The position numbers and the translations under genes were made by a program. Shown here piece after piece: positions 6,701-63,473 of a stretch of DNA of 64,000 bases. Under the pieces are notes generated by a model. It was given only the letters and a program-made list of their open reading frames with translations, did no database searches and was not told the DNA's origin. This DNA is from Bacteroidales bacterium (GTDB lineage: Bacteria; Bacteroidota; Bacteroidia; Bacteroidales; UBA1715): the NCBI GenBank assembly GCA_031286165.1, contig JAITUU010000055.1, forward strand, positions 404 through 64,403, given 5' to 3'. The stretch's first letter is position 1; each line of letters starts with the position of its first letter.

Positions 6701-6720
6701 GTCAATTTTTGAAATGTCCC

Positions 6721-6785
6721 GATAGGGAACGATAGGGAACGATAGGGAACGATAAGGGACGATAAGGGACGATAAGGGACGATAG
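6721..6785. repeat. Six phased 10-bp direct repeats (GATAGGGAAC x3, GATAAGGGAC x3) plus a partial seventh
   Basis: Read directly. They lie 60-125 bp upstream of the first gene of the structural-like operon (start at 6661). Confidence 0.9.
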
Positions 6786-6790
6786 GTTGG

Positions 6791-17073: not shown

Positions 17074-17526
17074 ATGGTAACAACTACAACAACCCAACAC
17101 GCTGCCCTTCTGCGCAAATTCCACACGCTTTTGGCTAAAACAGGCGTAGGCACCGAAGGCAAAGAAGTCATACTCGCCGCCTACGGCGTGCACAGTTCCA
17201 AAGAACTCAGCACCGCACACCTTGCCGATGCCTGCCAAAAATTGGAACAAACATTTGCGCCAAGCGAAAAACAAAACGAAATGGACACCCTGCGCAAGCG
17301 CGTAATTGCCGCCATTGGTGCATGGCTTACGGCTATGAATAAAGAACAGAATGTGGCTATCAACAAAGCCGTAGCCTGCCGCGCCGCTAAACGCGAGAAA
17401 TTCAACGACATTCCGGCGCAGCAACTCCGCAGCCTCTACGCCGCTTTTTGCAAGGCAAAAAAAGACCTTGCACAAGTGGAGAGCATTAGCGCACAGGAGT
17501 TGTTCCAACTTTCAATTAACAATTAA
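17074..17526 (+). CDS. Early-region protein, possibly GemA/gp16-like
   Basis: 150 aa. The position and the LLRKFHTLLAKTG...KELSTAHLADACQKLE pattern recall the Mu gp16 family from memory. Unverified. Confidence 0.35.
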   Translation: MVTTTTTQHAALLRKFHTLLAKTGVGTEGKEVILAAYGVHSSKELSTAHLADACQKLEQTFAPSEKQNEMDTLRKRVIAAIGAWLTAMNKEQNVAINKAVACRAAKREKFNDIPAQQLRSLYAAFCKAKKDLAQVESISAQELFQLSINN

Positions 17527-17545
17527 CCATTAACAATTAATAATT

Positions 17546-18190
17546 ATGGAAGTAACAATGACCCCCGAAGAACGCGCAGAATTTGAGGCGTTCAAAGCCG
17601 AAAAAGAACGAAAAGAGGCTCTGCAACGAGCCAAAGACGACCGCGAGGCGTACAAAAATTTGGTGGAAGACCAAATTGAAACCGTATTTCCGCGCCTGCT
17701 GGAAACAAGCGACTACCTGCGCGATGTGAAGCAGAACTGCATGAGATGTTTCGACCAAGCCCTCAAAATGAAAGCCGACCTTTTCAACGTGAAAGACGAC
17801 CAACGCTCGCACACCTTTACCAACGCCGAAGGCACGCGCCGTATTATTTTGGGCTACTACATTACCGATAACTACCGCGACACGGTGAACGAAGGCATCG
17901 CTATCATAAAAGAAGTAATCGCTTCGCTCGCTCGCGACAAAGAGAGCGAAATACTCGTAGAAGCAGTACTCAGACTACTGAGCAAAGACCAAAAAGGCAA
18001 CCTCAAAGCAAGCCGTGTATTGCAACTGCGCAAAATGGCTGACCAACTCGCCAACGAGCGATTTGCCGAAGGCGTGCGCATTATAGAAGAAGCCTTTCAG
18101 CCCGAACAAAGCAAACAATTCATTCGCGCCGAATACAAAAACGAAATCGGCATGTGGGTCAATGTGCCGCTCGGAATGACCGAAGCGTAA
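17546..18190 (+). CDS. Conserved Mu-like early protein (DUF3164-like guess)
   Basis: 214 aa; the size and position match a family common in transposable phages. Unverified. Confidence 0.35.
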   Translation: MEVTMTPEERAEFEAFKAEKERKEALQRAKDDREAYKNLVEDQIETVFPRLLETSDYLRDVKQNCMRCFDQALKMKADLFNVKDDQRSHTFTNAEGTRRIILGYYITDNYRDTVNEGIAIIKEVIASLARDKESEILVEAVLRLLSKDQKGNLKASRVLQLRKMADQLANERFAEGVRIIEEAFQPEQSKQFIRAEYKNEIGMWVNVPLGMTEA

Positions 18191-18496: not shown

Positions 18497-18547
18497 TAAG
18501 TAGTCAGTATCAAGTATTGAGTATTAACAACTAACCCATAACAACGA

Positions 18548-19024
18548 ATGAAAGAAATTTTAAACGCCATTCTCGAACGGCTCGCCGCCCTGCCCGAACT
18601 CAAATATGTGGACGAAAATTGGGGGCAAATGAACATAGCACAAAGTCCCGCAAAATTCCCTATGGCACTTGTAGATGTAGAAAGTGTAGAATTTAGCAAC
18701 ATGGGCAACCACGTACAAGAAGGCGAGGCTCGCATAACCGTTACCATAGCCGCCCTGCGCCTGAGCAATTCGAGCAGCGGCGCACCGGCAGCGCAACGCC
18801 GCAGCAATTTTGAGTTCTACGACCTGCTCACCGCCGCCCACTGTGCACTCCACCATTGGCGACCTGCCAACCACGCCGGACTTATGGTGCGCCTTGCGCA
18901 GCGGCGCATAGATTCGGCAGACGGCTACAAAATAACCGAACTAACCTACGGCGTGCGCTACCGGCAGCAGGGAGCACAGCAATACACCCAAGCCGTGAAC
19001 CCTCAGTTGAAAGTTGAAAATTGA
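18548..19024 (+). CDS. Hypothetical virion-assembly protein (158 aa)
   Basis: ORF adjacent to a morphogenesis-type gene. No motif recognised. Confidence 0.35.
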   Translation: MKEILNAILERLAALPELKYVDENWGQMNIAQSPAKFPMALVDVESVEFSNMGNHVQEGEARITVTIAALRLSNSSSGAPAAQRRSNFEFYDLLTAAHCALHHWRPANHAGLMVRLAQRRIDSADGYKITELTYGVRYRQQGAQQYTQAVNPQLKVEN

Positions 19025-19089
19025 AAATTGAAAATTGAGAACTAACAACTAATAACTCTTAATTGATATTTTTTAATTCGTAATTGACT

Positions 19090-19578
19090 ATGACCCCCGA
19101 ACAATTCCAAATACAACTCAAAAACCTGAGTAAACGAGTGCAAACGTTTTTGAAAGACGATGCGCCACAGTATGCTGCCAATAGTGCCATAGAGCATTTT
19201 AAAGACAATTTTATGAAAGAAGGGTTTTTTGGCACACGCTGGAAGAACGTGAAACGCCGCGAAGACCCCAAGAACTTTAAAACCATTACACGCGGAATCA
19301 ACAAAGGCACAGTGCGAGCCATAAATAATGCCGGAAAGGCAAAAATACTTACCGGCACAAGCAACCTCAAAAACAGCATACACTACCGCACCGAACCGGG
19401 TGCGGCAATAGTGTATAGCGATACCGAATATGGCAAAGCACACAATGAGGGGCTGAAAGCAGGGCGCGGCAAAGGGTTTATAATGCCAAAACGCCAATTT
19501 ATAGGCAACCACCCCACACTCACCAAAGCAATTCGCGAAGAACTCGAAAAGCGCGTAAAACAAGTATTCGGTAGTTAG
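19090..19578 (+). CDS. Virion morphogenesis protein (HK97 gp10 / Mu G-like)
   Basis: ATG at 19090. The N-terminal ...LKDDAPQYAANSAIEHFKDNFMKEGF...WKNVKRR resembles the gp10-type head-tail adaptor family. Confidence 0.45.
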   Translation: MTPEQFQIQLKNLSKRVQTFLKDDAPQYAANSAIEHFKDNFMKEGFFGTRWKNVKRREDPKNFKTITRGINKGTVRAINNAGKAKILTGTSNLKNSIHYRTEPGAAIVYSDTEYGKAHNEGLKAGRGKGFIMPKRQFIGNHPTLTKAIREELEKRVKQVFGS

Positions 19579-19676
19579 ACACAAGACACAAGACACAAGA
19601 TACGAGATACAAGACACGAGATACAAGACGTGAGATTTGAAAACTGATAACTAACAACTAATCACTAATAACTAAA
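19579..19676. repeat. Heptad-periodic spacer (14 x 7 nt) beginning at the stop codon
   Basis: acacaag acacaag acacaag atacgag atacaag acacgag atacaag acgtgag atttgaa aactgat aactaac aactaat cactaat aactaaa. Confidence 0.85.
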
Positions 19677-26520: not shown

Positions 26521-26583
26521 TTTGAACCGGGATTTTCAGGATTAAAGGATTTTCAAGATTGTAATTTTCAACTTTCAACTAAT

Positions 26584-27658: not shown

Positions 27659-27829
27659 ATGGCAGAAAAAACCGAAAAAACCGAAGCAACAATCATAGCG
27701 ATTGACCCGGAAGTAAAACAACTTTTAATAGAAATTCGCGATGCGCTCAAAGCACAACAAGAAGTACCGGCAGCACCCAAAGCCGCACCACTCAAAGTGT
27801 ATGCACCGAAACCGAAAAAGAAACAGTAA
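27659..27829 (+). CDS. Small head-module protein (56 aa)
   Basis: Manually translated as MAEKTEKTEATIIAIDPEVKQLLIEIRDALKAQQEVPAAPKAAPLKVYAPKPKKKQ. Lies between the protease and capsid genes and falls below the ORF-track length cut-off. Confidence 0.4.
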   Translation: MAEKTEKTEATIIAIDPEVKQLLIEIRDALKAQQEVPAAPKAAPLKVYAPKPKKKQ

Positions 27830-27874
27830 GATAGAGTACTAACAACTAACAACTAACAACTAATAACTAAAACA

Positions 27875-28801
27875 ATGAGTGTACAAATAACCACTGCCTA
27901 CGATGGCGAAGTATTAGAGCAACTGCTCGTAAGAGCCACTACCAACAATGAGTTTGTAGCAGGCGGACACATTCGCATAGAGCCGAATGTGAATAAAAAA
28001 TTCTCAATTCCACGTTTGCGTGCCGGAAAAATGCTGCAAAAACGTAAGGAAATGCCCACGAGTGAAAACAGTAAAGGCGATTTTAGCATAAACGAAGTGT
28101 ATTTGGAGCCAAAAGATGTAATGGTATATACCGAGTTCAACCCGCGCTCTTTTGAGAAATTTTGGCGAAAATACCAGCCCACCGGCAATTTGGTATTTAC
28201 CGAACTGCCCGCCGAAGTGCAAAATGCCATGCTTGCAGAAATGGCAAAAATGGTAGACTTTGAAATGGGGGTAGAGTTTCTTACCGGCACCTACGGCACC
28301 ACCGAAGGCAATTATTTCGATGGTATTCTTACTCGCATTTGCGCCTCGCCCGATGTGGTATCGCTCGCCAATGCCGAAGAAATTACCGCCGACAATGTAT
28401 TTGCAGTACTTCATTCGGTAAAATCGCAAATCCCAAATACGCTGCGCGGCAATCCGAACCTCAAAATTTTCATGAGCCGCACCGATGCCGACATTTACGA
28501 TGAAGCCCTCACCGCTCGTGAGTTCAAAGGGGCAAACTACACCGAAAGCAACCCCGAACGCTACAAAGGTATTCAAATAGTGCCGCTCGCTGCCATGCCT
28601 AAAAACGTGGTGGTGGCAGCCGTGGCAAGTACCGATTTAGGCAGCAACTTCTGGGCTGGCGTGAGTTTTGAAGACGATGCCGAAACAATCAAAATAGACC
28701 GCGTGAGCAATGCCGGAGAAAAATACTTCTTCAAAATGCTCATGAAAGCCGACACCAACATTGTGTGGGGCGAGGACATTGTTCTCTATGACGGTAGATA
28801 A
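27875..28801 (+). CDS. Major capsid protein (HK97-fold, Mu gpT-like by size and position)
   Basis: 308 aa, directly after the protease/scaffold and followed by a structured intergenic region. Confidence 0.7.
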   Translation: MSVQITTAYDGEVLEQLLVRATTNNEFVAGGHIRIEPNVNKKFSIPRLRAGKMLQKRKEMPTSENSKGDFSINEVYLEPKDVMVYTEFNPRSFEKFWRKYQPTGNLVFTELPAEVQNAMLAEMAKMVDFEMGVEFLTGTYGTTEGNYFDGILTRICASPDVVSLANAEEITADNVFAVLHSVKSQIPNTLRGNPNLKIFMSRTDADIYDEALTAREFKGANYTESNPERYKGIQIVPLAAMPKNVVVAAVASTDLGSNFWAGVSFEDDAETIKIDRVSNAGEKYFFKMLMKADTNIVWGEDIVLYDGR

Positions 28802-28983: not shown

Positions 28984-30204
28984 ATGCTAAACGATATACT
29001 TTTTGAAAAACAAAACGGCGGAATGGGGCGCACAGCCCCCAATGCCGACCCGGTGAGCGGACTACTCATGGCTCTCGGCACCGGTATTGCAGCCACGCTT
29101 GCGCAATTTGAGCGCATAGGCGAAGGCGGCGCACAGGTGGCAGTAATCAAACTCAAATACTTTGAGCAATTGGCAAATCAATTCGGCATAGCCGAAAGCC
29201 TGCCCAAAGACCTGCCCGAAGGCGCAGAACTGAGCGAAGTGCAAAAACAGCACAACGCCATAGTGCAGCACGTGCGCGAGTTCTTCCGCATGTCGCCCGC
29301 AGGCACGCTCTACCTTGCAATCAAAGCAGGCGGCGAAATTTCGGGCGAACACATCAAAGCCCTGCAATATTTCGCCGGTGGCGAAATCCGTCAAGTGGGC
29401 GTGTTCTCGGCTGCCATAGCCGTAGCCGACTACCAAAGTGCTGCCGATGAACTCTCCGGCGAACACCAAGCACTGAGCGTAATAGCCACACCTGCCAAAG
29501 GCGCAAGCACCCTTGCCGACTACTACGATGAAGATTTGAGCCAAGTGGCAAAAAACCGCGCCAATGTGAGTATTCTCATTAGCCGCGACCTCGACCCCGC
29601 GCTCGACGAAAAACTCGGCGCATGGGCGCAATATGGCTGCATAGGCACCGTGCTTGGAGCCGTAAGTGCAGCCGCCGTGCACGAAAGCATTGCATGGGTG
29701 GCAAAATTTCCGCTCTCGCTCAAAATACCCGGATTCATTACCGGCGAAGCGGTGAAAACCGTAAGCACCGCCACGCTCAATTTGATTAACGACCTGCGTT
29801 ACCTCTTTGTGCGCACCCACACCGGCGATGCAGGCAATTACCTGAACGACAGCCACACGTTGGACGAAGCAACTTCCGATTATGCCTTCATAGAAAACAC
29901 GCGCACTATGGATAAAGCAATTCGTGGTATTCGTAGTAATCTTTTGCCCTACCTGAATGCACCACTCTATGTGAACCCTGAAAGCGGAAAACTCAGTTTC
30001 GGCACGGTGGCGAATTTGGAACTCATAGCAAGTAAAGCACTCGAAGACATGGAAAAAGCAGGCGAACTAAGCGGCTACCGTGCCGTAATAGACCCCGAAC
30101 AAAACGTGCTTGCCACAAGCGAAGTAGAGGTGCAAATTAAAAACGTGCCGGTGGGTGTCATGCGCACTGTGCGGGTGAAAATTGGATACACCACGAAAGT
30201 ATAA
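28984..30204 (+). CDS. Putative tail sheath protein
   Basis: 406 aa, followed by a 142-aa tube-sized gene, a frameshifting chaperone and a tape measure gene. Called from order and size only. Confidence 0.45.
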   Translation: MLNDILFEKQNGGMGRTAPNADPVSGLLMALGTGIAATLAQFERIGEGGAQVAVIKLKYFEQLANQFGIAESLPKDLPEGAELSEVQKQHNAIVQHVREFFRMSPAGTLYLAIKAGGEISGEHIKALQYFAGGEIRQVGVFSAAIAVADYQSAADELSGEHQALSVIATPAKGASTLADYYDEDLSQVAKNRANVSILISRDLDPALDEKLGAWAQYGCIGTVLGAVSAAAVHESIAWVAKFPLSLKIPGFITGEAVKTVSTATLNLINDLRYLFVRTHTGDAGNYLNDSHTLDEATSDYAFIENTRTMDKAIRGIRSNLLPYLNAPLYVNPESGKLSFGTVANLELIASKALEDMEKAGELSGYRAVIDPEQNVLATSEVEVQIKNVPVGVMRTVRVKIGYTTKV

Positions 30205-30243
30205 GCCTAACAACTAATAACTAACAACTAATACCTAATTAAC

Positions 30244-30672
30244 ATGAACGGAATACCATTAATTAACGGATTTGCCTACGATTGGGGCGAAATAGCATTT
30301 ACCCTTGCCGGTATGCCTATTACAGGAATTATCGCAATAGATTACGCCGACAAACAAGAGGTAACCAACAACTACGGAGCCGGTCGCTACCCCATAAGCC
30401 GGAGTAAAGGGCGCATAACCTGCACCGCAAAAGTTACGCTCGACATGGAAGAAGTGCGGGCAATTACACGCAAATTGCCAAACGGACGATTGCAAGACTG
30501 CCTGCCCTTCAATGTTTTGGTGGCGTATATCAAAGAGGACGACCCTACCAAAGTACACTGCGATGTGATTCACAACTGCTCGTTTACACAAAATTCTCGC
30601 GCTTGGAAAGAGGGCGACACGCGCAAAACGGTAGATTTAGACCTCGTGCCAAGCCATATTACATGGGGGTAA
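30244..30672 (+). CDS. Putative tail tube protein
   Basis: 142 aa, located between the sheath-sized gene and the chaperone. Confidence 0.45.
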   Translation: MNGIPLINGFAYDWGEIAFTLAGMPITGIIAIDYADKQEVTNNYGAGRYPISRSKGRITCTAKVTLDMEEVRAITRKLPNGRLQDCLPFNVLVAYIKEDDPTKVHCDVIHNCSFTQNSRAWKEGDTRKTVDLDLVPSHITWG

Positions 30673-36477: not shown

Positions 36478-36801
36478 ATGATTGACAAGATGAATGGAAT
36501 TTTGATAGATAACGAAACAAGCGACCTGCTCGTGCAAGTAACACGCAATGCGCAGGGAAAAATTACACGCGGCGTGCTGGTGGGCGACTGCCGCGCAGAC
36601 GTAGCCGAACGCATACTGCAAGCCTATCCGGGAGAGTTTAAAGAACATCCTACGCTCGGCTGCGATATAAAACAGCAAATCAACGGCACAGCCTCTCCCT
36701 TTTGGCGCGGACACACCATGAGCCAACTGCGCAGCGAAGGAATAGAGGTGGAAAATTTGACAATCAACGAAAATGGAGTACAACTGAGTATCAAGTCGTG
36801 A
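36478..36801 (+). CDS. Baseplate wedge protein, gpW/gp25-like
   Basis: 107 aa; size and position match. EHPTLGCDIKQQING resembles the gp25-family loop. Confidence 0.4.
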   Translation: MIDKMNGILIDNETSDLLVQVTRNAQGKITRGVLVGDCRADVAERILQAYPGEFKEHPTLGCDIKQQINGTASPFWRGHTMSQLRSEGIEVENLTINENGVQLSIKS

Positions 36802-36883
36802 GATATGAGACATGAGATTTGAGATTTGAGACGTGAGAACTGAAAACTAACAATTAACCATTTACAATTAATAATTAACAATT
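36802..36883. repeat. Heptad-periodic intergenic leader (11 x 7 nt + 5)
   Basis: gatatga gacatga gatttga gatttga gacgtga gaactga aaactaa caattaa ccattta caattaa taattaa caatt, then ATG. Confidence 0.85.
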
Positions 36884-37303
36884 ATGGAAAACAACCTCCC
36901 ACGCGGCTTGCGAAACAACAACCCCTTGAATATGCGCATAGGCGAAAGTGCATTTACCGGCGAAATCAAACCGGGCACAGATAGAAGTTTTCGCCAATTT
37001 CAAACTATGGCGTATGGCTACCGCGCCGCCTTTCGGCAAATGGAACTCTACTTGGGGCGCGGGCTGAATACGATTGAAAAAATCATAACAACATGGAGTC
37101 CGCCCGAAGAAAACCACACGCAGGCGTATATTGCTATGGTGTGCGCCCACACCGGCATTGCATCCACAAAAGTACTCACGCTCCACAGCGGCGAAGATTT
37201 TATACGAATAGTAGCCGCCATGAGTTACGTGGAAAACGGGCAACAACCGGTAATGGCAGACGTGCTTGCGGGATTTGCGTTACAAACGGCAATAACAAGA
37301 TAG
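36884..37303 (+). CDS. Conserved phage protein with an RNNNPLNMR motif; candidate cell-wall hydrolase by context
   Basis: 139 aa: PRGLRNNNPLNMRIG...FRQFQTMAYGYRAAFRQMELYL. Directly precedes two membrane/lipoprotein genes. Confidence 0.35.
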   Translation: MENNLPRGLRNNNPLNMRIGESAFTGEIKPGTDRSFRQFQTMAYGYRAAFRQMELYLGRGLNTIEKIITTWSPPEENHTQAYIAMVCAHTGIASTKVLTLHSGEDFIRIVAAMSYVENGQQPVMADVLAGFALQTAITR

Positions 37304-37386
37304 ACACAAGACACGAGATATGAGATTTGAGACGTGAGATTTCAGACTAACAACTAAGCACTAATAACTAACAACTAACAACGAAT
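37304..37386. repeat. Heptad-periodic intergenic leader (11 x 7 nt + 6)
   Basis: acacaag acacgag atatgag atttgag acgtgag atttcag actaaca actaagc actaata actaaca actaaca acgaat, then ATG. Confidence 0.85.
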
Positions 37387-37734
37387 ATGGACACATCAAT
37401 TATTATAACAGTAATCGGCTTGCTGAGCGCGGTGGTAGGGAGCACATGGATTGCTTCGGTGGTGCTGCGGCGCAAGTATGAGCAGGAAATAGAACTGCTG
37501 AAAGCCGACCACCACCGCAAAGAAAGCGACACCAACGGCGTGGAAATAGCCAACGCCAAAGAAGTACTCAAAACTCAAATGGAATACATAATAACCCCTT
37601 TACAAAATGAAATCAAAGCACTTAGAAAAGATGTACGAAGCCTGCGCAGGGCTGTGGAAAAAATCAGCGATTGCCCTCACAGTAGCGATTGCCCTGTGCG
37701 CCGTGAGTTGCAAAACAACGAAACTAACGACTGA
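37387..37734 (+). CDS. N-terminally anchored coiled-coil protein (holin- or i-spanin-like)
   Basis: TM segment IIITVIGLLSAVVGSTWIASVVL followed by a charged helical region. Overlaps the next gene by 128 nt in another frame. Confidence 0.4.
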   Translation: MDTSIIITVIGLLSAVVGSTWIASVVLRRKYEQEIELLKADHHRKESDTNGVEIANAKEVLKTQMEYIITPLQNEIKALRKDVRSLRRAVEKISDCPHSSDCPVRRELQNNETND

Positions 37735-38080
37735 AACCGCTACCACACTCAGCCACCATGCCGCCGATGTGCGATGGACTACCGACACGGTGTTTGCCGC
37801 CGAAAAAGACTTCGTGTTTGTGTACATAAACGGCGACACGGTGTATAGAGACCGCCTGCGCGACCGCTTTGTGTATAAAACCAAACGCGATACCACCGCC
37901 CGAACCGACAGCGTGTATGTAGAAAAAAAAGTATTTGTGGAACAAGAAAAACAACTCTCCCGGTGGCAACAACTCAAACTCGACTGCTTTTGGTGGATAG
38001 TGGCGCTCAATATTGCACTACTCGTTTTTATCGGCATTTACGCAGTGATTAAACGACTTTTAAATAGACACAAGATTTGA
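37607..38080 (+). CDS. Lipoprotein with a C-terminal TM helix (spanin-like; possible unimolecular spanin)
   Basis: The signal and lipobox-like IALTVAIALCAVSC, plus a C-terminal CFWWIVALNIALLVFIGIYAVI. The gene starts inside the preceding gene, an Rz/Rz1-like arrangement. Confidence 0.4.
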   Translation: MKSKHLEKMYEACAGLWKKSAIALTVAIALCAVSCKTTKLTTETATTLSHHAADVRWTTDTVFAAEKDFVFVYINGDTVYRDRLRDRFVYKTKRDTTARTDSVYVEKKVFVEQEKQLSRWQQLKLDCFWWIVALNIALLVFIGIYAVIKRLLNRHKI

Positions 38081-38140
38081 GACGTGAGACATGAGATTTC
38101 AGACTAACAACTAATAACTAATAACTAACAACTAATAGGT
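38081..38140. repeat. Heptad-periodic intergenic leader (8 x 7 nt + 4)
   Basis: gacgtga gacatga gatttca gactaac aactaat aactaat aactaac aactaat aggt, then ATG. Confidence 0.85.
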
Positions 38141-38467
38141 ATGAAATATTCCGTTCTTGACCGACAAAGTATGTTTGACATTGCCCTGCAAACGGCAGGC
38201 AGTGCGGAAGCAGCCTTTGCCCTTGCGCGCGAAAACGACCTTTCGCTTACGGAAGATTTGGAGGTGGGTGCGGTATTGACAATGGGGCAATCAATATTGA
38301 CAATGGGGCAATCAGTATTAACAATGGGGCATGCCCCATTGCTAAACAAAAACGTTACCGATTTTTTCGCCAACAAACACCTGCGCCCGGCAACGGCAAT
38401 TTCCAACACCGAAACCCACATTGTGGGACGAATATTTGATTACACGTTTGAAGAACAATTTGAGTAA
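38141..38467 (+). CDS. LysM-like tail protein X homolog with an internal heptapeptide repeat
   Basis: The N-terminal YSVLDRQSMFDIALQTAGSAEAAFALARENDLSLTEDLEVGAVL is LysM/gpX-like. Followed by (V/I)LTMGQS repeats. Confidence 0.45.
   Translation: MKYSVLDRQSMFDIALQTAGSAEAAFALARENDLSLTEDLEVGAVLTMGQSILTMGQSVLTMGHAPLLNKNVTDFFANKHLRPATAISNTETHIVGRIFDYTFEEQFE
38275..38340 (+). repeat. In-frame 21-bp tandem repeat (~2.8 copies) ending in a 16-bp palindrome
   Basis: TATTGACAATGGGGCAATCAA / TATTGACAATGGGGCAATCAG / TATTAACAATGGGGCAT.... ATGGGGCATGCCCCAT at 38325-38340 is a perfect palindrome. Confidence 0.85.
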
Positions 38468-38520
38468 CAAGACACAAGACACAAGACACAAGACTTTTCA
38501 ACTTTCAATTTTCAATTAAA
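38468..38520. repeat. Heptad-periodic intergenic leader (7 x 7 nt + 4)
   Basis: caagaca caagaca caagaca caagact tttcaac tttcaat tttcaat taaa, then ATG. Confidence 0.85.
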
Positions 38521-39378
38521 ATGGCACGCACAATTTCAGAGATAAAAAAAGAGATAACGGACGATTTCGTGAGTAATCCGGCAGTGGTAGAAGCCTACGG
38601 TTTGGAGCAGGGAAAATCCTTTGAGGAGCAATTTTCAAAAGCGAGTTTGGAGAGCATCCTATTCTACCTGCACGCGGCGAAAATTTGGCTTTTGGAGACA
38701 CTGTTCGACACCCACCGCGAGGAGATAAACACCATTCTGCAAAGCAAACGTCCGCACACGGTGGGGTGGTATCGTGGGGCGGCACTTGAATTTCAATTCG
38801 GGCGCGAACTGCGGGCGGACGTGGCGGAATACGATAATTCGGAATTGAGCGAAGACGAAATTGCAGCCGAGCGCATCGTAAGCAAATGCGCGGTGGAAAA
38901 AGCCGAATTTGCCGAAAAGCCGACCCTGACCATCAAAGTAGCCAAAGCCGCCACGCACTTAACCGATGCCGAAAAAACGGCATTTGAAAAATACATGAGC
39001 GAAAAAGCCGATGCAGGCGTGCGCTTGAATATTATCAGCGGCGCACCCGACCGCTTGTGGCTCAGTATCATTATTCGGCACGATGGGCTTGTGTTGAACG
39101 GCAGCGGCGAACGGCTTTACGGAGGGAGCGAAAAACCTGTTGAAAAGGCGGTTAAAAATCATTTAAACAAGCTTGTGTTCAACGGCACGTTTTTCCCCTC
39201 GCTCTTGGAGCAGGAACTCATGCGCCTGCCGGGTGTGAAAATCGCCACCGTGCAAGCCTCGCAAGCCTGCCCCGCCGGTGGCACCCTCACGCAGTTTGTG
39301 GACAAATATCAACCCCTCACCGGCGCGTTGGATATTGACACGGAAAACGATTTGCGCGTGGAATACGAGTTGATATAA
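38521..39378 (+). CDS. Baseplate J-like protein
   Basis: 285 aa. Called from its position after the gpW/gpX-like genes. Confidence 0.45.
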   Translation: MARTISEIKKEITDDFVSNPAVVEAYGLEQGKSFEEQFSKASLESILFYLHAAKIWLLETLFDTHREEINTILQSKRPHTVGWYRGAALEFQFGRELRADVAEYDNSELSEDEIAAERIVSKCAVEKAEFAEKPTLTIKVAKAATHLTDAEKTAFEKYMSEKADAGVRLNIISGAPDRLWLSIIIRHDGLVLNGSGERLYGGSEKPVEKAVKNHLNKLVFNGTFFPSLLEQELMRLPGVKIATVQASQACPAGGTLTQFVDKYQPLTGALDIDTENDLRVEYELI

Positions 39379-39443
39379 TTGTCTGAACCGGGATTTTCAA
39401 GATTAAAGGATTTTCAGAATTAACCATTAACCATTAACCATTA

Positions 39444-39968
39444 ATGAAACTATTTGAGATACAATGGGACAAATTGAACGTGTTGTTACTGCCCACGTTC
39501 TTGCGGAAAATGCGATACTTCGCGTTTCTAAAAGCCTGCACGCAGCCGATTTGGACGGTCTATCGGTGGTTTGCGGAGTGCCGGGAGCAAACGCTCTTTT
39601 TGCTGAAATTCGACACAAGCAAAGGTAACGTAGAACGTGCGCTGCGCACAAAATTTGAATCGGACAGAATTTATATTACCAATACCGATACCGTAACAGA
39701 TAACACAATCTACCTTGCAAGTGCCGAACTCGAAGAAATCGTGTATTTAGATGCGTGGCTTGGAACATTGGAGGAACTTACACCCATTGAACGTACCTAT
39801 TTTGACGATACGCTGTATTTGGATTTTTTTATAGCCCCCAAAGCAACTTTGGCGGACTTTACCGTACACGTTCCGGCAGGAACCGATGCCGTGTACCACA
39901 CCGAAATCGTGCAATTTACCGAACAGTTTACCCTGCCCGGATTTCGATTCCAATTACAAATATTTTAG
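39444..39968 (+). CDS. Baseplate/tail protein, gpI / Mu gp48-like by position
   Basis: 174 aa, following the J-like gene. Confidence 0.35.
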   Translation: MKLFEIQWDKLNVLLLPTFLRKMRYFAFLKACTQPIWTVYRWFAECREQTLFLLKFDTSKGNVERALRTKFESDRIYITNTDTVTDNTIYLASAELEEIVYLDAWLGTLEELTPIERTYFDDTLYLDFFIAPKATLADFTVHVPAGTDAVYHTEIVQFTEQFTLPGFRFQLQIF

Positions 39969-40001
39969 ACACAAGACACATAGACACTAATAATTAAAAA
40001 A

Positions 40002-40766
40002 ATGAATAGAATTGAATTACAAGACAATGGATTTCCGATGACGGCAAAAACACTGCGATTTTTGCAAGAGGCGTATCAAAAACCGATTGAATTTTTGGCA
40101 CGCGAGGCAGCGGTACGCGCAGGCGGCAACTGTATTTTGTACGGAGTAGAACAAACATCAAGCGGCGGCGCGTGGACGGACGGCGCAATAGTTTACAACA
40201 ACGAAATTCTGCCCTTTGTGGGAGGTAGTGGTAACTACTTTTCCGTGAAAAACACACCGGAGCAGGCAGTGTATAAAAATGGGTTGAGCGTAGATGCCTA
40301 CTTCACACGCTACGCGCAAACCGACACAAGCGGCACCGCTATTTCGACACTAAAACGGCTCAACGAACCCGCGCCCACTGCACCCGCAAACACCGCGTGG
40401 GCTTCGCCAACATGGCAAACGGACTATGCAGACATGGCTACCTACCCCCTGAAATGCCGTATATATGGTGGAAAAGGGCAAATAGTGGGAACGTATGAAC
40501 GAACATTTCCTTTGCCATCACAAATTACTACCGATAGTTATACAACGATACTCACACTTCCATCTTCAATGAAACCCAAAAAAGAACAATGGATTACGGC
40601 GCAAATAAGTAGCGTTAGTGCATTTAACTCTCCCAATAATATATTTGGAGCGGGTTTGTTGCAAATTACCACCGGTGGGTTATTGCGAGTGCAATACAAT
40701 AAAGAAACACGCGGAATGGGATTAATTGACTGTGGCGTGATTGCCGCCACCTTCGATTTACTGTAA
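40002..40766 (+). CDS. Tail fibre-associated / receptor-binding candidate
   Basis: 254 aa, located between the baseplate and long-fibre genes. Confidence 0.4.
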   Translation: MNRIELQDNGFPMTAKTLRFLQEAYQKPIEFLAREAAVRAGGNCILYGVEQTSSGGAWTDGAIVYNNEILPFVGGSGNYFSVKNTPEQAVYKNGLSVDAYFTRYAQTDTSGTAISTLKRLNEPAPTAPANTAWASPTWQTDYADMATYPLKCRIYGGKGQIVGTYERTFPLPSQITTDSYTTILTLPSSMKPKKEQWITAQISSVSAFNSPNNIFGAGLLQITTGGLLRVQYNKETRGMGLIDCGVIAATFDLL

Positions 40767-40804
40767 TTTTCAACTTTCAATTTTCAACTTTCAATTCAAA
40801 AAAC
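40767..40804. repeat. Heptad-periodic intergenic leader (5 x 7 nt + 3)
   Basis: ttttcaa ctttcaa ttttcaa ctttcaa ttcaaaa aac, then ATG. Confidence 0.85.
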
Positions 40805-42505
40805 ATGGATTTACAAAATTTAGCAAATCGCGCCGTACAAGTGCGCGAAGAAACACAGCAGGGGCAAAACACGGCAAAGCGCGTGGGTTCGCTGTTCTAC
40901 GATATTATTACCTTCTTTTCGGGTTTGCTGCAAGGAAAGCAGGACAAAACAGACGAAACTCTGCAAACCACCGACAAAAGTGTACCGGGTGCAATCAACG
41001 AAGTGTATAATGGTATTTCGCTCCTGCAAGGCAACGTGAGCGATGCGTTGGGGGAATTGGAGGGCGAAGTCATGCGGGCAATTACCATAGAAACCCAAAA
41101 CCGCACGGAGGCACTACTCGCCGAAACAAATAATCGCACCGCCGCCATTGCCGCGCTTGATAATCAAAAGCAGGACAAAAGCGATGCGAACCTGCAAACC
41201 GGCGCGAAAACCGTAGTAGCCGCCATAAACGAGGTGCTTGCAAATGCGAACGCAATAGGACACAGGGTGCTTACGTGCAATCAAGGCATGGCGTGGAACG
41301 GAATACCCAATGACGGCGGAAATTCTGCATACAACAACTATTACAATGTAGCAGACGGCACAATAGACGTGTACAAAGACTGGCCGGGCTTCAAACTAAA
41401 CGGCGCAACGGTGAATATGCAAACCGATGTACGTGTGGGCGATATTGCTATGGACGGTGCCGGAACCAATTTCAGCTCAATGGTAGGCGTATTTATTCAA
41501 GGTTCCCCACAACCGCGTGTAAAACTACTGCCAAACGCCATGAACCGATATTATAGATTAATCAGAAACGCCACAAACCCTTACGTAAAAATCGGGAAAA
41601 TGCAAACCTCGTTTGTGGGAAGACCGTCCGTAACAAGTTCGGTAGTTATATCAATGCCGGTGGGCGATGCCGCAGCCTCAAATTCCAATCCTATCACGCA
41701 CAGTGCTATATTCACATGGAACGGCAACAAAATATATCAATCGAACCCCATAGAGGGCTACACCTTTCGCTGTGATAGCGGGGGGTGTTTGTATGTAACC
41801 ATTCCGCGCAATACCTACATATATGCCACCACATGGCACGAATCGTATTTTAATTTAGACAAAACGGTAGTAACCGCTGCCGAATGGGAAACACTCTCGC
41901 CGGTGGTGCTGCCATTATTTGCAGGCGAGGCTTACGACCTCAATACAGAGGCAAAAGATATTATCGGCGCAATTAATGAGATATATTCTATTGCCGGACA
42001 AAGTAGCGGCGGTGTTGCTATTATAGAAAGTTTCCCTTTGGCACTATGCGAAGGAGCGCAAAATATCAATCCGGGTTTTGTGGGATTTTTAACCGTTCCT
42101 ACGGTCGATACGCTTATTTCCAAAGCGCAAACCTGCGTGCAAACAAATCACACGGCAGGTAATTTTAAAGTGGCTATTTACAATGAGAATAAACAGTTGG
42201 TGGGCAGTACACAATGGGGGTATTTGGCACGCTCCAAAGCGTGTTTTGTGGAAGCCGATTTTACCGCACCACTGACACTTACCGCCGGAGAGTACTATTA
42301 CGTAGTATTGCACATTGACCACTACAATAGCCGCTATTTGGCAGCAAAGCAACTCAAATGTAACGTGGCAGGTTCCGCGAACGTATTGCAAACCATAATA
42401 GCAGGTAGCGCACAAACAGAACAAAACGATTTGAGCGGGTTTATTACCCAATCCTTTCCCTGCACTGTGCAACAAATTGATGTGCCGTATGTGAAAATTT
42501 TTTAA
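40805..42505 (+). CDS. Tail fibre protein
   Basis: 566 aa, last late gene, followed by a strong terminator. Carries three copies of a K-x-V/I-x-G/A-A-I-N-E-V/I-Y/L motif (KSVPGAINEVY, KTVVAAINEVL, KDIIGAINEIY). Confidence 0.6.
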   Translation: MDLQNLANRAVQVREETQQGQNTAKRVGSLFYDIITFFSGLLQGKQDKTDETLQTTDKSVPGAINEVYNGISLLQGNVSDALGELEGEVMRAITIETQNRTEALLAETNNRTAAIAALDNQKQDKSDANLQTGAKTVVAAINEVLANANAIGHRVLTCNQGMAWNGIPNDGGNSAYNNYYNVADGTIDVYKDWPGFKLNGATVNMQTDVRVGDIAMDGAGTNFSSMVGVFIQGSPQPRVKLLPNAMNRYYRLIRNATNPYVKIGKMQTSFVGRPSVTSSVVISMPVGDAAASNSNPITHSAIFTWNGNKIYQSNPIEGYTFRCDSGGCLYVTIPRNTYIYATTWHESYFNLDKTVVTAAEWETLSPVVLPLFAGEAYDLNTEAKDIIGAINEIYSIAGQSSGGVAIIESFPLALCEGAQNINPGFVGFLTVPTVDTLISKAQTCVQTNHTAGNFKVAIYNENKQLVGSTQWGYLARSKACFVEADFTAPLTLTAGEYYYVVLHIDHYNSRYLAAKQLKCNVAGSANVLQTIIAGSAQTEQNDLSGFITQSFPCTVQQIDVPYVKIF

Positions 42506-50930: not shown

Positions 50931-50955
50931 GTCGGTTCGAGTCCGGCTCCCGCAA
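50931..50955 (+). tRNA. Partial tRNA gene: T-arm + 3' acceptor strand only (att-site remnant)
   Basis: GTCGG-TTCGAGT-CCGGC forms a T stem-loop, followed by the acceptor strand TCCCGCA and a discriminator A. No complementary 5' acceptor (TGCGGGA), D-arm or anticodon arm lies in the preceding ~75 nt. Confidence 0.6.
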
Positions 50956-50965
50956 CTTACTTAGA

Positions 50966-52158: not shown

Positions 52159-52243
52159 TTTGTTCGTAATTAGTTGTTAGTGATTCGTTGTTAGAAAAAA
52201 ATTGGAACCCAAAAATTAGTGAATTGTCATATTAGCACATTGT

Positions 52244-52876: not shown

Positions 52877-53037
52877 ACTTTGTATTTTTCGCCTGCAAAC
52901 ATACGAATTAATTGAGAGTTGAAAATTGAAAATTAAAAATTAATTCATATTTTTTAGCCATAACTCGTATTCAATGTGCAAAATTGTGTAATTTTGCGCG
53001 ACTAAAATTAACATAAACCTTTAAAAGTAATAACAAA

Positions 53038-53703: not shown

Positions 53704-54966
53704 ATGGCAATGAACAAAACGCTCCCTTTTTCAAAAACACAAATAGAGAACATTATAACGAACTACCCCACCCCTTTTCATATTTACGATGAGGCGGCAA
53801 TGCTGGCAAATGCACAAAAATTCAAGGCTGCTTTTGCGTGGAACGCAGGATTTAAAGAATTTTATGCCGTAAAAGCAAATCCCAATCCGGTACTTATAAA
53901 ACTGCTTGCCAACTGCGATTTCGGCTGCGATTGCAGTTCCTACCCCGAACTCGTGCTTGCCGAAAAAGCAGGTGTTACGGGTGAAAACATTATGTTTACT
54001 TCCAACAACACGGCTGCCTACGAATTTCAAAAAGCCCGTGAATTGGGCGCAATTATCAATTTAGACGATATTAGCCACATAGAATTTTTAGAACAAAGTG
54101 CCGGCTTACCCGATTTGATTTCTTTTCGCTACAACCCCGGCGCACTCAAAGAAGGCAATGCCATAATAGGACACCCCGAAGAAGCAAAATACGGATTGAC
54201 CGAAGCGCAACTCTTTGAAGGCTACAAATTACTGCAACAAAAAGGCGTGCGCCGATTTGGAATTCACACTATGGTGGCATCGAACGAACTGAACGGCGAT
54301 TATTTTGTGGAAACTGCCGATATTATGTTCAATTTGATTATAAAATTACACAAAGAATTGGGCATTCGCTTTGAATTTGTGAATTTGGGCGGCGGTATTG
54401 GTATTCCCTATCGCCCGGAGCAACAGCCGGTGGATATAGCCGCCGTGAGTGCCGGAATTAAACAAAAATACGAAGACCTGATAGAAAAAAACGGACTTGC
54501 GCCGCTTAAATTATATTTTGAATCGGGTCGCTACATAGCCGGACCATACGGTTATTTGGTTACGCGCGTGCAACATTTCAAACACACCTATCGCCACTAT
54601 GCCGGCTTAGACGCAAGTATGCACAACCTTATGCGCCCCGCGCTGTATGGAGCCTATCACCACCTGAGCGTGGTGGGCAAAGAACACGAAGCACACAATA
54701 CCATATACGATGTAACCGGTTCGCTCTGCGAAAACAACGATAAATTTGCCATTCAACGCCCACTGCCAAAACTCGAAATCGGCGACATAGTAGTAATTCA
54801 CGACAGCGGTGCTCACGGTCATTCTATGGGTTTTAATTACAATGCCAAACTGCGTTCGGCAGAACTCCTGCTGCGACCAAACGGCGATGTAGTACAAATT
54901 CGCCGCCCCGAAACCATAGACGATTATTTTGCTACGCTTGATTTTACGCAACTTTCTAAATTCTAA
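53704..54966 (+). CDS. PLP-dependent group IV decarboxylase (diaminopimelate decarboxylase family)
   Basis: ATG at 53704 is preferred. YPTPFHIYDE...FYAVKANPNP...GCDCSSYPEL...GGGIGIPY...GSLCENNDKF match the Orn/DAP/Arg decarboxylase family. Confidence 0.75.
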   Translation: MAMNKTLPFSKTQIENIITNYPTPFHIYDEAAMLANAQKFKAAFAWNAGFKEFYAVKANPNPVLIKLLANCDFGCDCSSYPELVLAEKAGVTGENIMFTSNNTAAYEFQKARELGAIINLDDISHIEFLEQSAGLPDLISFRYNPGALKEGNAIIGHPEEAKYGLTEAQLFEGYKLLQQKGVRRFGIHTMVASNELNGDYFVETADIMFNLIIKLHKELGIRFEFVNLGGGIGIPYRPEQQPVDIAAVSAGIKQKYEDLIEKNGLAPLKLYFESGRYIAGPYGYLVTRVQHFKHTYRHYAGLDASMHNLMRPALYGAYHHLSVVGKEHEAHNTIYDVTGSLCENNDKFAIQRPLPKLEIGDIVVIHDSGAHGHSMGFNYNAKLRSAELLLRPNGDVVQIRRPETIDDYFATLDFTQLSKF

Positions 54967-55000
54967 TAACTAATAATTAATTAACTAACAACTAATAAAT
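54967..55000. repeat. Heptad-type leader in the chromosome (between the decarboxylase gene and pgi)
   Basis: taactaa taattaa ttaacta acaacta ataaat, then ATG. It uses the same word family as the prophage leaders. Confidence 0.7.
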
Positions 55001-56716: not shown

Positions 56717-56805
56717 TAATTAAATCCTCTGTTTACGAATAATTTACAATTTGTAATTTACAATTTGTAATTAAAGTGTATTTTTGTGGTCAAATTTTTA
56801 GTTGC

Positions 56806-63364: not shown

Positions 63365-63473
63365 GATACAAGACACAAGATTTTTAGACACAAGACATAC
63401 AATATGAGTATTGAGATATTTGTAGATATTCATTGTTCTCAGTTCTCAACTAAATAAATAATACCTATATATC
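63365..63473. repeat. Heptad-type spacer in the chromosome (after the ABC ATPase gene)
   Basis: gatacaa gacacaa gattttt agacaca agacata ... gttctca gttctca actaaat aaataat. 15 x 7 + 4 nt fill the gap from stop to ATG exactly. Confidence 0.6.

Follow-up and report, generated by a model that had tools for sequence, protein, structure and literature searches.

Introduction

Bacteroidota initiate translation without Shine-Dalgarno (SD) pairing and use an unusual -33/-7 promoter, and little has been written on how their intergenic sequence arises and turns over. Here we analyse a 64,000-nucleotide stretch ("the window") of contig JAITUU010000055.1 in assembly GCA_031286165.1, a 2.5-Mb, 42% GC metagenome-assembled genome (MAG) of a Bacteroidales bacterium; we label the genome G000, and the window is its contig C46. 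Our subject is a class of gaps between genes, in a Mu-like prophage and in the chromosome, that are built from degenerate tandem 7-nt units (heptads). Arrays of such heptads are abundant across the genome, run in the direction of the downstream gene and take preferred positions relative to start codons, stop codons and the TAnnTTTG (-7) promoter box, and in the prophage they lie at gene junctions that are tight in homologous phages.

Tandem heptanucleotides have been seen before in bacterial intergenic DNA. In cyanobacteria, the short tandemly repeated repetitive (STRR) sequences of Mazel et al. (1990) are reported to be intergenic families of heptanucleotides in which one genome has several unit types and the vocabulary depends on the lineage. 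We know of no described link between STRR and -7 boxes or SD-less leaders, and both the units and the phylum differ from those considered here.

The closest described system is that of MacGregor 2015 (PMC4679880), in which TAACTGA heptamers lie just upstream of SD-less starts in Beggiatoaceae, 15 Cyanobacteria and 5 Bacteroidetes. These repeats carry stops in the forward frames and show 7-nt indels between close strains, and S1, Csp and CsrA-like proteins were proposed as binders. A first-pass annotation of the window, made by a model from the letters alone, was aware of no description of phased leaders, so this part of its account needs correcting: start-proximal heptamers were already in print (PMC4679880). 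According to the summary in the same paper, Mrazek 2007 found heptanucleotides to be the most abundant class of long simple sequence repeats (LSSRs) in most genomes, and an interaction with DNA polymerase that favours slippage was proposed (PMC4679880). In outline, a preprint on Vibrio cholerae reports that (TTTTGAT)n heptads in the ctxAB promoter recruit a transcriptional regulator, and relates heptad number to promoter activity (bioRxiv 10.1101/2021.05.14.444153). Finally, SD-independent initiation in Flavobacterium johnsoniae is promoted by an A-rich motif; translation in this species correlates with A at -13, -12, -6 and -3, and its -33 element is weak (Baez et al. 2019, PMC6847099). In the literature searched, we found no description of multi-word stop-to-start composites, of four-unit blocks in register with a -7 box, or of the wholesale opening of prophage gene junctions.

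Heptad spacers in the window

The tail/baseplate part of the Mu-like prophage (36.8-40.8 kb) is where the pattern is plainest: between its co-directional genes, all gaps are degenerate heptamer runs. We scored the lag-7 identity of each whole spacer against shuffles of that spacer, with lags 6 and 8 as controls. Identity was 0.71-0.77 in the five principal spacers (p<=0.0005) and 0.67-0.75 in 19579-19676, 27830-27874 and the leader of pgi. For these eight spacers, shuffles reached only 0.29-0.41 (p<=0.0015) and lags 6 and 8 only 0.16-0.46. All of the coordinates that the first-pass annotation had listed in prophage and chromosome hold, and the pattern as a whole is far beyond that of shuffles. 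Its claim that the same vocabulary occurs upstream of chromosomal genes stands well for the pgi leader (0.67) and more weakly for the tgt leader at 52159-52200 (0.51, p=0.011) and for 63365-63473 (0.43, p=0.003). One short tail-module gap, 39969-40001, was not significant in the whole-spacer test (0.50, p=0.16).

The main heptad spacers and leaders of the window are as follows.

36799-36883, plus strand: stop-to-start spacer; the TGA stop is unit 1, followed by (TGAGAYN)x6, which drifts to (TAACAAT-type)x5; ATG at 36884; lag-7 identity of 36802-36883 0.77 (p<=0.0005), fold z +0.89; GATTTGAGACGTGAGA is common to it and two other spacers.
37301-37386, plus strand: stop-to-start spacer; TAG, then ACACAAG/ACACGAG and GAGAYNT units and (ACTAAYA)x5; ATG at 37387; lag-7 identity 0.72; paralogous to 38064-38140, judging by the common GAGATTTCAGACTAACAACTAA.
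38064-38140, plus strand: spacer related to 37301-37386; the array takes in the last ~17 nt of ORF 37607-38080, including its TGA stop; lag-7 identity of 38081-38140 0.74.
38465-38520, plus strand: TAA + (CAAGACA)x4 + (TTTCAAY)x3 + TAAA; ATG at 38521; lag-7 identity 0.76; minimum free energy (MFE) 0 kcal/mol, z +2.5; the homologous junction in G002 (a congeneric genome, see below) is TAA-T-ATG.
39379-39443, plus strand: 40-nt element common to 26521-26583, then (ATTAACC)x3.7; ATG at 39444; the homologous genes in the G002 prophage overlap by 14 nt.
39966-40001, plus strand: short spacer, TAG ACACAAG ACACATA GACACTA ATAATTAAAAAA; weak periodicity; the G002 junction is 11 nt.
40764-40804, plus strand: TAA + (TTTTCAA/CTTTCAA)x4 + TTCAAAAAAC; ATG at 40805; lag-7 identity 0.71; contains no G; the homologous G002 junction is TAA-AA-ATG.
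19576-19676, plus strand: 14-unit array after the stop of ORF 19084-19578; (ACACAAG)n, GAGAYNT and AACTAAY; lag-7 identity 0.75; a fourth member of the paralogous spacer family.
27827-27874, plus strand: TAA + GATAGAG + (TACTAAC/AACTAAY)x5 + ACA; ATG at 27875; lag-7 identity 0.74, z +1.9.
30205-30243, plus strand: (AACTAAY)x5 leader; ATG at 30244; lag-7 identity 0.69 (p<=0.0005).
17513-17545, plus strand: (CAATTAA)x4.9 array spanning a junction; ATG at 17546 (DUF3164 gene).
18497-18547, plus strand: TAG + (nAGTAnT)x4 + (TAACnnn)x3; ATG at 18548; lag-7 identity 0.61.
19007-19089, plus strand: (TTGAAAA)n array that begins inside the 3' end of an ORF and supplies its TGA stop, followed by CTAA units and AATTCGT units.
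54964-55000, plus strand: CTAA-type heptad leader of pgi; lag-7 identity 0.67.
52159-52200, minus strand: heptad leader of tgt; AACTAAC and AATCACT types on the sense strand; lag-7 identity 0.51, lag-14 identity 0.68.
63365-63473, plus strand: loose, weakly periodic composite spacer with the genus-specific AGACACAAGA motif twice and a TTCTCAn pair.

The arrays are less regular than first described. A strict single 7-nt register holds in 36802-36883, where adjacent units are all at least 5/7 identical even across the change of word from TGAGAnn to TAACAAT. It does not hold in 38468-38520 and 37304-37386, where the register breaks cleanly between two unrelated arrays (CAAGACT next to TTTCAAC, 1/7 alike, and ATTTCAG next to ACTAACA, 2/7 alike). 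A constant offset between the GAGA-type and TAAC-type halves was tried by hand and rejected, the offset being 6 in 36802 and 5 in 37304. The earlier statement that spacers parse without remainder as k x 7 + r is uninformative, as it would apply to a spacer of whatever length. Arrays were also said to start right after the stop codon; often they start at the stop, which then serves as unit one of the phase, or reach a few bases back into the ORF. The reported 5'-to-3' drift from G-containing to G-free words was borne out (G 15.6% vs 8.6%, p=4e-5), and ordinary spacers show a fall of the same kind (15.1% vs 11.2%).

Several other readings can be set aside. An assembly artefact is ruled out by an independent Logan contig that is 100% identical over three spacers and by the many genomes with similar arrays. 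The prophage spacers fold no better than their shuffles and mostly worse (z -0.2 to +2.5), which rules out a hairpin or terminator reading for them. Rfam 15 gave 0 matches at gathering score in the whole window, so a known RNA family is also ruled out.

Genome-wide excess and location

The first-pass annotation had proposed a genome-wide autocorrelation against shuffled controls as a check, and the excess was confirmed. Using a detector that required at least 17/21 matches at lag 7, we found 219 period-7 arrays in the genome and 0 in a block-shuffled copy, and intergenic autocorrelation peaked at lags 7, 14 and 21. At other periods the detector stayed at about zero or background, except for period 8 (46 arrays). 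Tandem Repeats Finder (TRF) likewise gave 7 as the commonest period, with 457 rows. Nearly all of the arrays are intergenic (200/219, 91%), and they are oriented with the downstream gene: AATTTAC occurs 22 times in that sense and 3 times as its reverse complement, AACAACT 12 vs 2 and AACTTTC 8 vs 0.

The vocabulary runs to dozens of words, including nnnCTAA, TTTCAAY, AATTTAC, ATTAACC, AATTCGT, nAGACAn and GAGAYNT. Tandem TAACTGA (TAACTGATAACTGA) occurs once in the genome, where the related AACTGAA (10 arrays) and AACTAAY (12 arrays) dominate. If the arrays were confined to a few spacers copied by recombination, most loci would share their flanks with another locus. This is true of four prophage spacers (below) and is ruled out for the genome as a whole, as flanks are unique at 151/206 merged loci (73%) and common to another array locus at 55/206 (27%).

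Two further kinds of repeat accompany the heptads. The first is a tandem family of period 8 (46 arrays vs 2 in shuffles) that often adjoins heptad arrays, e.g., (TTATTCAG/TTATTCAA)n and (CTAATATG/CTAATGTG)n at G000 C24:81824-81862 and C33:55827-55865. The other is a dispersed cassette of about 150 nt, found at at least seven loci (G000 C4:~1600-1900, C4:~29850-30130, C9:~190-480, C20, C28, C48 and C51), which consists of a terminator hairpin (AACTCCTGCnAACTTnGTTTGCGGGAGTTTTTTT), CTAA heptads (TTCTAACAACTAATCAC…), (AATTTAC)n and a -7 box. Three copies also have about 80 nt in common upstream (…gagataacaagggggcatgcccccttgctgttacaac…). The cassette might be a small RNA gene.

Promoter-linked arrays

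A large class of arrays, missed by the first-pass annotation, is linked to promoters. The -7 box TAnnTTTG occurs in 668/1663 upstream gaps (104 in shuffles), with a peak 15-45 nt before the ATG. In 58 array promoters, the 50 nt upstream of this box are heptads in one fixed register: relative to the TA, T has a frequency of 0.84-0.91 at -7, -14, -21, -28 and -35, and an A-tract lies at -42 to -37. A looser count gives 110 heptad promoters, with four units in 80, three in 25 and five in 5. At least six unit types (AATTTAC, ATTAACC, AACTAAC, TTTCAAC, AATTCGT and ACTCACT) share the identical layout, and the genes downstream are ordinary housekeeping genes, i.e., those for EF-P, Ffh, a ParC/GyrA-like protein, MurF-Alr, TsaC and a PPIase. 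In a Bacteroidetes sigma-ABfr promoter, transcription begins 4-5 nt past the -7 TAnnTTTG, and a -33 TTTG is placed 19-21 nt upstream of it; in array promoters that latter position reads TTTA, TTAA or TCAA. An exact-protein look-up with EF-P for strain variants of its heptad promoter returned no record.

Two heptad promoters lie in the window.

52896-52946, minus strand: heptad promoter of a TsaC-like gene; -7 box TATGTTTG (52896-52903 on the plus strand), with TTTTCAA-type units at 52910-52946.
56739-56786, plus strand: heptad promoter; (TAATTTACAATTTG)x2.4, then AATTAAAGTG and, at 56779-56786, the -7 box TATTTTTG; the ATG (56806) follows 19 nt later.

The module of the second has matches at more than 20 places in congeneric genomes. 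The gaps of 36.8-40.8 kb, on the other hand, hold no plus-strand TAHHTTTG, so the tail-module spacers are probably operon-internal.

Start-proximal arrays

Across the genome, leaders have the signature of Bacteroidia: A at 0.52-0.57 in positions -14 to -11, A at -6 and -3, and 9-12% G. SD-like GGAG and AGGA are rare upstream of starts, which agrees with the earlier statement that no SD sequence is present. The starts and stops used here are longest-ORF, first-ATG calls made for this analysis, which adds noise to tests of phase.

Heptad arrays occupy -33 to -5 of 48 leaders, compared with 1 in shuffles. Their AA columns tend to fall in the phase with AA at -14/-13 or -13/-12 (chi-square p=0.011), and CTAA peaks at -16/-15, with side peaks at -23/-22 and -9. 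Array leaders are also much less structured than ordinary ones (MFE over -45 to +18 of -2.1 vs -5.6 kcal/mol, p=3e-9), mostly because they contain 6% G rather than 14%; C is 19%. The start-proximal G-free units are therefore nearly structure-free and loosely phase-locked to the known A-rich initiation motif of Bacteroidia.

The first-pass annotation suggested that G-poor, unstructured heptads may act as enhancers of initiation or as spacers. Its description is right, but the key adenines are no more frequent in array leaders than in ordinary ones (2.29 vs 2.10, p=0.25). An "enhancer" marked by a surplus of key adenines was not seen, and by their sequence the array leaders look compatible with initiation rather than enhancing.

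Stop-proximal arrays

At the other end of the gap, arrays start at the stop codon of 29 genes (0 in shuffles). Here the stop itself is unit one of the in-phase series (for example, TAG-TTAT-TAG-TTAT-TAG or TGA-GATA-TGA-GACA-TGA), and some arrays extend a few codons into the ORF and give it its stop (19007-19089 and 38064-38080). TAG makes up 45% of array-borne stops vs 17% genome-wide. Since 7 = 1 mod 3, stops recur in all three frames: this happens within 30 nt for 18/29 array genes vs 16% of all genes. This matters for annotation, since the stop codon frequently comes from the array and the called end of a gene can be displaced.

A genus-specific 12-mer, AGACACAAGAYA, is found in 28, 16 and 38 copies in three congeners and in at most 2 copies in each of 38 other relatives. 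In G000 it is about 30-fold concentrated beside stop codons, and about a third of the copies of AGACACAAGA lie within -6 to +20 of a stop codon on the sense strand.

Sites of AGACACAAGAYA or AGACACAAGA in the window: 19576-19600, 37301-37315, 38468-38494, 39966-39985 and 63365-63405.

Prophage junctions

The region 12932-42505 is a Mu-like prophage, with Portal_Mu, DUF3164, a MuB-like AAA_22 ATPase, a Clp-type prohead protease, DUF2586 and a tape-measure protein. It has homologues in a congeneric genome (G002, contig C44) and in other Bacteroidota MAGs. Array density in the prophage is 57 per 100 kb, compared with 8.2 in the rest of the genome.

Homologous prophages allow the junctions to be compared. 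The 285-aa protein of 38521-39378 has homologues at 61-77% identity, on contigs with identical gene order. In the congeneric prophage (70% amino acid identity; its contig is identical to Logan contig L141), the gaps are -14, -4, -1, 1, 2, 9 and 11 nt and contain no period-7 array. In two more distant contigs (L143 and L144), junctions are mostly tight, and the few gaps of 35-180 nt have no heptad arrays. Protein termini are kept at the five G002 junctions compared, e.g., VEYEII*/MKSFEVNWDK vs VEYELI*/MKLFEIQWDK and MAREIQEIK vs MARTISEIK, and the 33-65-nt heptad spacers of the window fall exactly between the homologous stop and start. Because two outgroups agree on tight, array-free junctions, the spacers are lineage-specific insertions or expansions in this phage lineage.

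Some of the spacers are related to each other. Those at 19579, 36802, 37304 and 38081 align end to end, differ mainly by blocks of approximately whole units, and have 16-22-mers in common (including GATTTGAGACGTGAGA and GAGATTTCAGACTAACAACTAA) that are absent elsewhere in the genome. On this evidence, the four GAGAYNT/AACTAAY spacers are paralogues, copied between junctions within the prophage.

Separately, the spacers at 26521-26583 and 39379-39443 have GAACCGGGATTTTCAnGATTAAAGGATTTTCA in common, and CCGGGATTTTCA is found only at these two places in the genome, followed in each by a different heptad array.

Database searches were negative: the INPHARED collection gave no match to related phages, an IMG/VR search by protein gave no relative, and the prophage-specific junction word GAGATTTCAGACTAACAACTAA had no exact match in metagenome contigs. 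Seven IMG/VR hits to the 16-mer GATTTGAGACGTGAGA were dismissed as chance, three that were inspected lying in unrelated, non-repeat sequence.

Relatives and spread across the phylum

Similar words occur in two same-genus genomes, at 5.5-5.8 arrays per 100 kb in the samples used; other genera of the family have 0-3.4 and other families 0-2.5. At orthologous loci, the arrays come and go. The pgi leader has nnnCTAA heptads in all three congeners, with about 5, 3 and 5 units in different spelling and no conservation of the gap sequence, and a second orthologous leader reads (AACTAAC)~4, (CCTAAnn)n and (CTAATCA)8 in three congeneric species. The heptads of the tgt leader are absent from the tgt leaders of the other two congeners (G001 and G002), and heptad promoters of G000 are missing at orthologous promoters of congeners, which keep the -7 box alone. 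Length changes by whole units are seen in the paralogous spacers (by about unit blocks) and in promoter arrays (three, four or five units), while the one independent contig is identical.

The pattern (CTAA-N3)x4 was present in 114/301 Bacteroidota genomes sampled, from 60/144 genera, with widely varying loads. A reversed control pattern is also abundant in some Bacteroidota genomes, which shows that other heptad families exist in them.

Two other genomes gave observations of their own. In a distant Bacteroidota genome (L182, G099:C1:133239-134610), (GCTAAnn)n heptads stand immediately before both rplN and rplX, and (GCTGCTA)n heptads follow the rplN stop, a stop-side/start-side layout as in G000. 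In the second genome (L166-L174, G294), CTAAACC/CTAAACA arrays, a word like that of plant telomeres, usually follow a complementary TTTAGGG/GGTTTAG stretch at a distance of about 30 nt, which suggests a dispersed hairpin element built from heptads.

Other features of the window

6720-6786: 10-nt tandem array (CGATAGGGAA)x6.7 in the gap between two minus-strand genes.
38274-38331: 21-nt repeat x2.8 (TATTGACAATGGGGCAATCAA) inside ORF 38141-38467, giving a repeated heptapeptide in a small tail-module protein.
50934-50956: fragment like the 3' end of a tRNA or tmRNA (GGTTCGAGTCCGGCTCCCGCAAC), where neither ARAGORN nor Rfam reports a gene; the fragment may be what is left of an attachment site bordering a toxin-antitoxin island (43-50 kb).

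Explaining the arrays

We lean, with slightly better than even confidence, towards a simple account: the spacers are degenerate heptanucleotide simple-sequence repeats, born by slippage, filtered by the constraints of expression signals and serving as passive spacers and leaders. Arrays would arise and change length in 7-nt (sometimes 8-nt) steps by slipped-strand mispairing or unequal exchange, and would occasionally be copied ectopically from one gene junction to another. They would survive only in the stop-to-start non-coding gap or upstream of a promoter, and position on the sense strand would decide which units persist. Beside the ATG, only G-free, AUG-poor words of A, C and T would do so (nnnCTAA, TTTCAAY and ATTAACC), leaving the initiation region unfolded; these would tend to set AA at -14 to -12 and again 7 nt on, near -6, i.e., at adenine positions that favour SD-independent initiation. 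Beside the upstream gene, units would carry a stop triplet (TAG, TGA or TAA + N4), with the gene's own stop as the first. In promoter gaps, three to five units (mostly four) would fill about -9 to -36 upstream of TAnnTTTG, capped by an A-tract. In the Mu-like prophage, the same process would have turned overlapping or abutting junctions into spacers of 33-98 nt.

The first-pass annotation had also suggested generation by slippage. Growth by 7 nt fits this, as paralogues differ by approximately unit blocks and homologous prophages lack the spacers; the mechanism itself, like any effect on expression, we infer from these sequence comparisons. On the account we favour, the arrays would be interchangeable spacer, leader or upstream-promoter sequence with no specific regulatory code: G falls in ordinary spacers too, the key adenines are not above normal and homologous operons work without the spacers, all of which argues for passive sequence.

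Several findings weigh against this account. The seven-fold enrichment of arrays in the prophage and the copy number of the genus-specific AGACACAAGAYA are not readily explained by a passive filter, and the strong bias to just four units in front of the -7 box is hard to fit to one. Phase-locking of arrays to the ATG is only modest (p about 0.01), based as it is on simple ORF calls. Array leaders also have no surplus of key adenines. Nor is freedom from structure universal, as about a third of heptad-rich chromosomal spacers have strong hairpins between complementary 5' and 3' arrays. It is the four-unit preference, AGACACAAGA at gene ends, the prophage enrichment and these hairpins that keep the following alternatives alive.

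The arrays could instead be selectively neutral, produced by a bias in the lineage's replication or repair that favours slippage by 7 nt, and contribute nothing to expression. Their rapid turnover between congeners, patchy distribution in the phylum and very different loads would be expected of such by-products, as would homologous operons that work without arrays, key A positions no better than in ordinary leaders and a G gradient equal to that of ordinary spacers; the commonness of heptanucleotides reported by Mrazek 2007 and the polymerase slippage proposal, as summarised in PMC4679880, point the same way. Purely neutral arrays should scatter in phase, however, and those at promoters have a fixed register and size while those at starts show orientation bias and phase preference. 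In addition, at least ten tail-module junctions are all expanded in one prophage, which suggests at least tolerance under selection for independent initiation; we rate pure neutrality as unlikely. At the opposite extreme, the arrays would be periodic binding sites of a dedicated factor (bS1, a cold-shock-type or RRM protein, or a genus-specific DNA-binding protein of promoters) and form a regulatory network. Strand orientation, the phase preference relative to ATG, and the fixed register with the -7 box and its preferred four units would all follow, and a binder could explain why AGACACAAGAYA is kept at 16-38 copies in three congeners (at most 2 in the 38 others) and about 30-fold at stops, and why CTAA heptads recur at orthologous leaders despite sequence turnover. 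The network proposed for TAACTGA (PMC4679880) and, going by the outline of that preprint, the ctxAB heptads (bioRxiv 10.1101/2021.05.14.444153) are precedents. Yet dozens of unit sequences occupy equal positions with no single recognition motif, arrays are gained and lost between congeners at orthologous promoters, homologous prophage genes lack them, the downstream genes are unrelated housekeeping genes and no candidate protein was identified; a dedicated binder is, in our judgement, improbable. The Rho-loading role raised by the first-pass annotation, in which G-poor arrays would be rut-like sites that impose polarity when downstream translation fails, found no support. The start-proximal halves are indeed G-poor (6%) and unstructured with C (19%) exceeding G, but a rut site is a C-rich, G-poor, unstructured stretch of about 70-80 nt of transcript, and the arrays are A/T-rich rather than C-rich, are often shorter than 50 nt, abut starts where ribosomes load and in many cases lie upstream of the -7 box, where they would not be transcribed. 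We consider this role very improbable indeed.

Copying raises a different possibility, namely that the spacers are copies of small non-autonomous mobile cassettes (terminator/spacer/promoter or stop-to-start modules) and that the 7-nt period is only their internal make-up. This accommodates the four prophage spacers that align over their whole length with unique common segments of 16-22 nt, the 40-nt element restricted to 26521-26583 and 39379-39443, the ~150-nt cassette at at least seven loci, the 27% of array loci with flanks common to another, the spacers placed exactly between conserved protein ends where homologues have 0-11 nt, and the promoter module with its >20 matches in congeneric genomes. 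It sits badly with the prophage spacers, which have no significant hairpins and so give no sign of terminal inverted repeats (target duplications and linked transposases were not searched for), and with the chromosomal 5'/3' pairing, which is between complementary arrays and not defined termini. Moreover, flanks are unique for 73% of arrays, the copies vary chiefly in how many units they hold, which is what slippage following ordinary ectopic recombination would produce, and neither the unmatched GAGATTTCAGACTAACAACTAA nor the chance viral-contig matches to GATTTGAGACGTGAGA reveal copies elsewhere. We regard mobile cassettes as an improbable explanation, and give similarly little credence to a bolder version in which heptad modules are actively propagating regulatory cassettes. 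There, words such as AGACACAAGA at gene ends, and blocks of four heptads at promoters, would be the targets of a factor or copying mechanism peculiar to the genus, which would install SD-independent leaders, three-frame stop pads and sigma-ABfr promoters, including those in the prophage, with 7 nt as the footprint of the factor.

If slippage and filtering do account for the arrays, mutation in 7-nt steps is able to furnish complete leaders, pads at gene ends and the sequence upstream of promoters, placed in register with known signals (A at -13/-6 and the TAnnTTTG box), and a prophage can have all of its tight gene junctions opened by heptad arrays. Should the arrays be functional, they would offer compact, portable, structure-free leaders and promoters for engineering Bacteroidales; should they be neutral, they would be a clean natural example of positional constraints sculpting simple repeats.

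Comparison with known systems

Against the LSSRs with 5-11-nt units of Mrazek 2007, the arrays share a unit of 7 placed head to tail, excessive length, more arrays than composition predicts, non-coding location, sporadic occurrence across taxa and a proposed slippage origin; the summary of that survey in PMC4679880 mentions no phasing to starts, stops or Bacteroidetes promoter boxes, which is what sets the arrays of this genome apart. The V. cholerae ctxAB promoter, as outlined in the preprint (bioRxiv 10.1101/2021.05.14.444153), is alike in having tandem heptads. It is one locus with a regulator, whereas here 55-110 promoters with several unit types have one architecture and no known binder.

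The translation initiation region (TIR) of Bacteroidia is A-rich at -14 to -11 with A at -6 and -3, low in G, low in structure and depleted in AUG (Baez 2019, PMC6847099), and array leaders have all of these properties. As described, that region is not periodic; here its requirements are satisfied by repeating one 7-nt word.

The nearest relatives remain the TAACTGA repeats (PMC4679880), which are likewise tandem heptamers, nearly all intergenic and forward, a few nt upstream of SD-less starts and in front of unrelated genes including housekeeping genes, with forward-frame stop triplets that restrict how far they run into coding ends. The arrays of G000 have this placement but not the TAACTGA unit, nor indeed any single unit: whole stop-to-start gaps are filled with a 5'-to-3' gradient of words. 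They differ further in that a large class lies in fixed register upstream of a -7 box, where it would act at the DNA level, and in that a prophage is the densest carrier. Intergenic heptanucleotide repeats as such are already known, and what this genome adds is that they are shaped to the phylum's promoter and ribosome-loading signals, with no new code.

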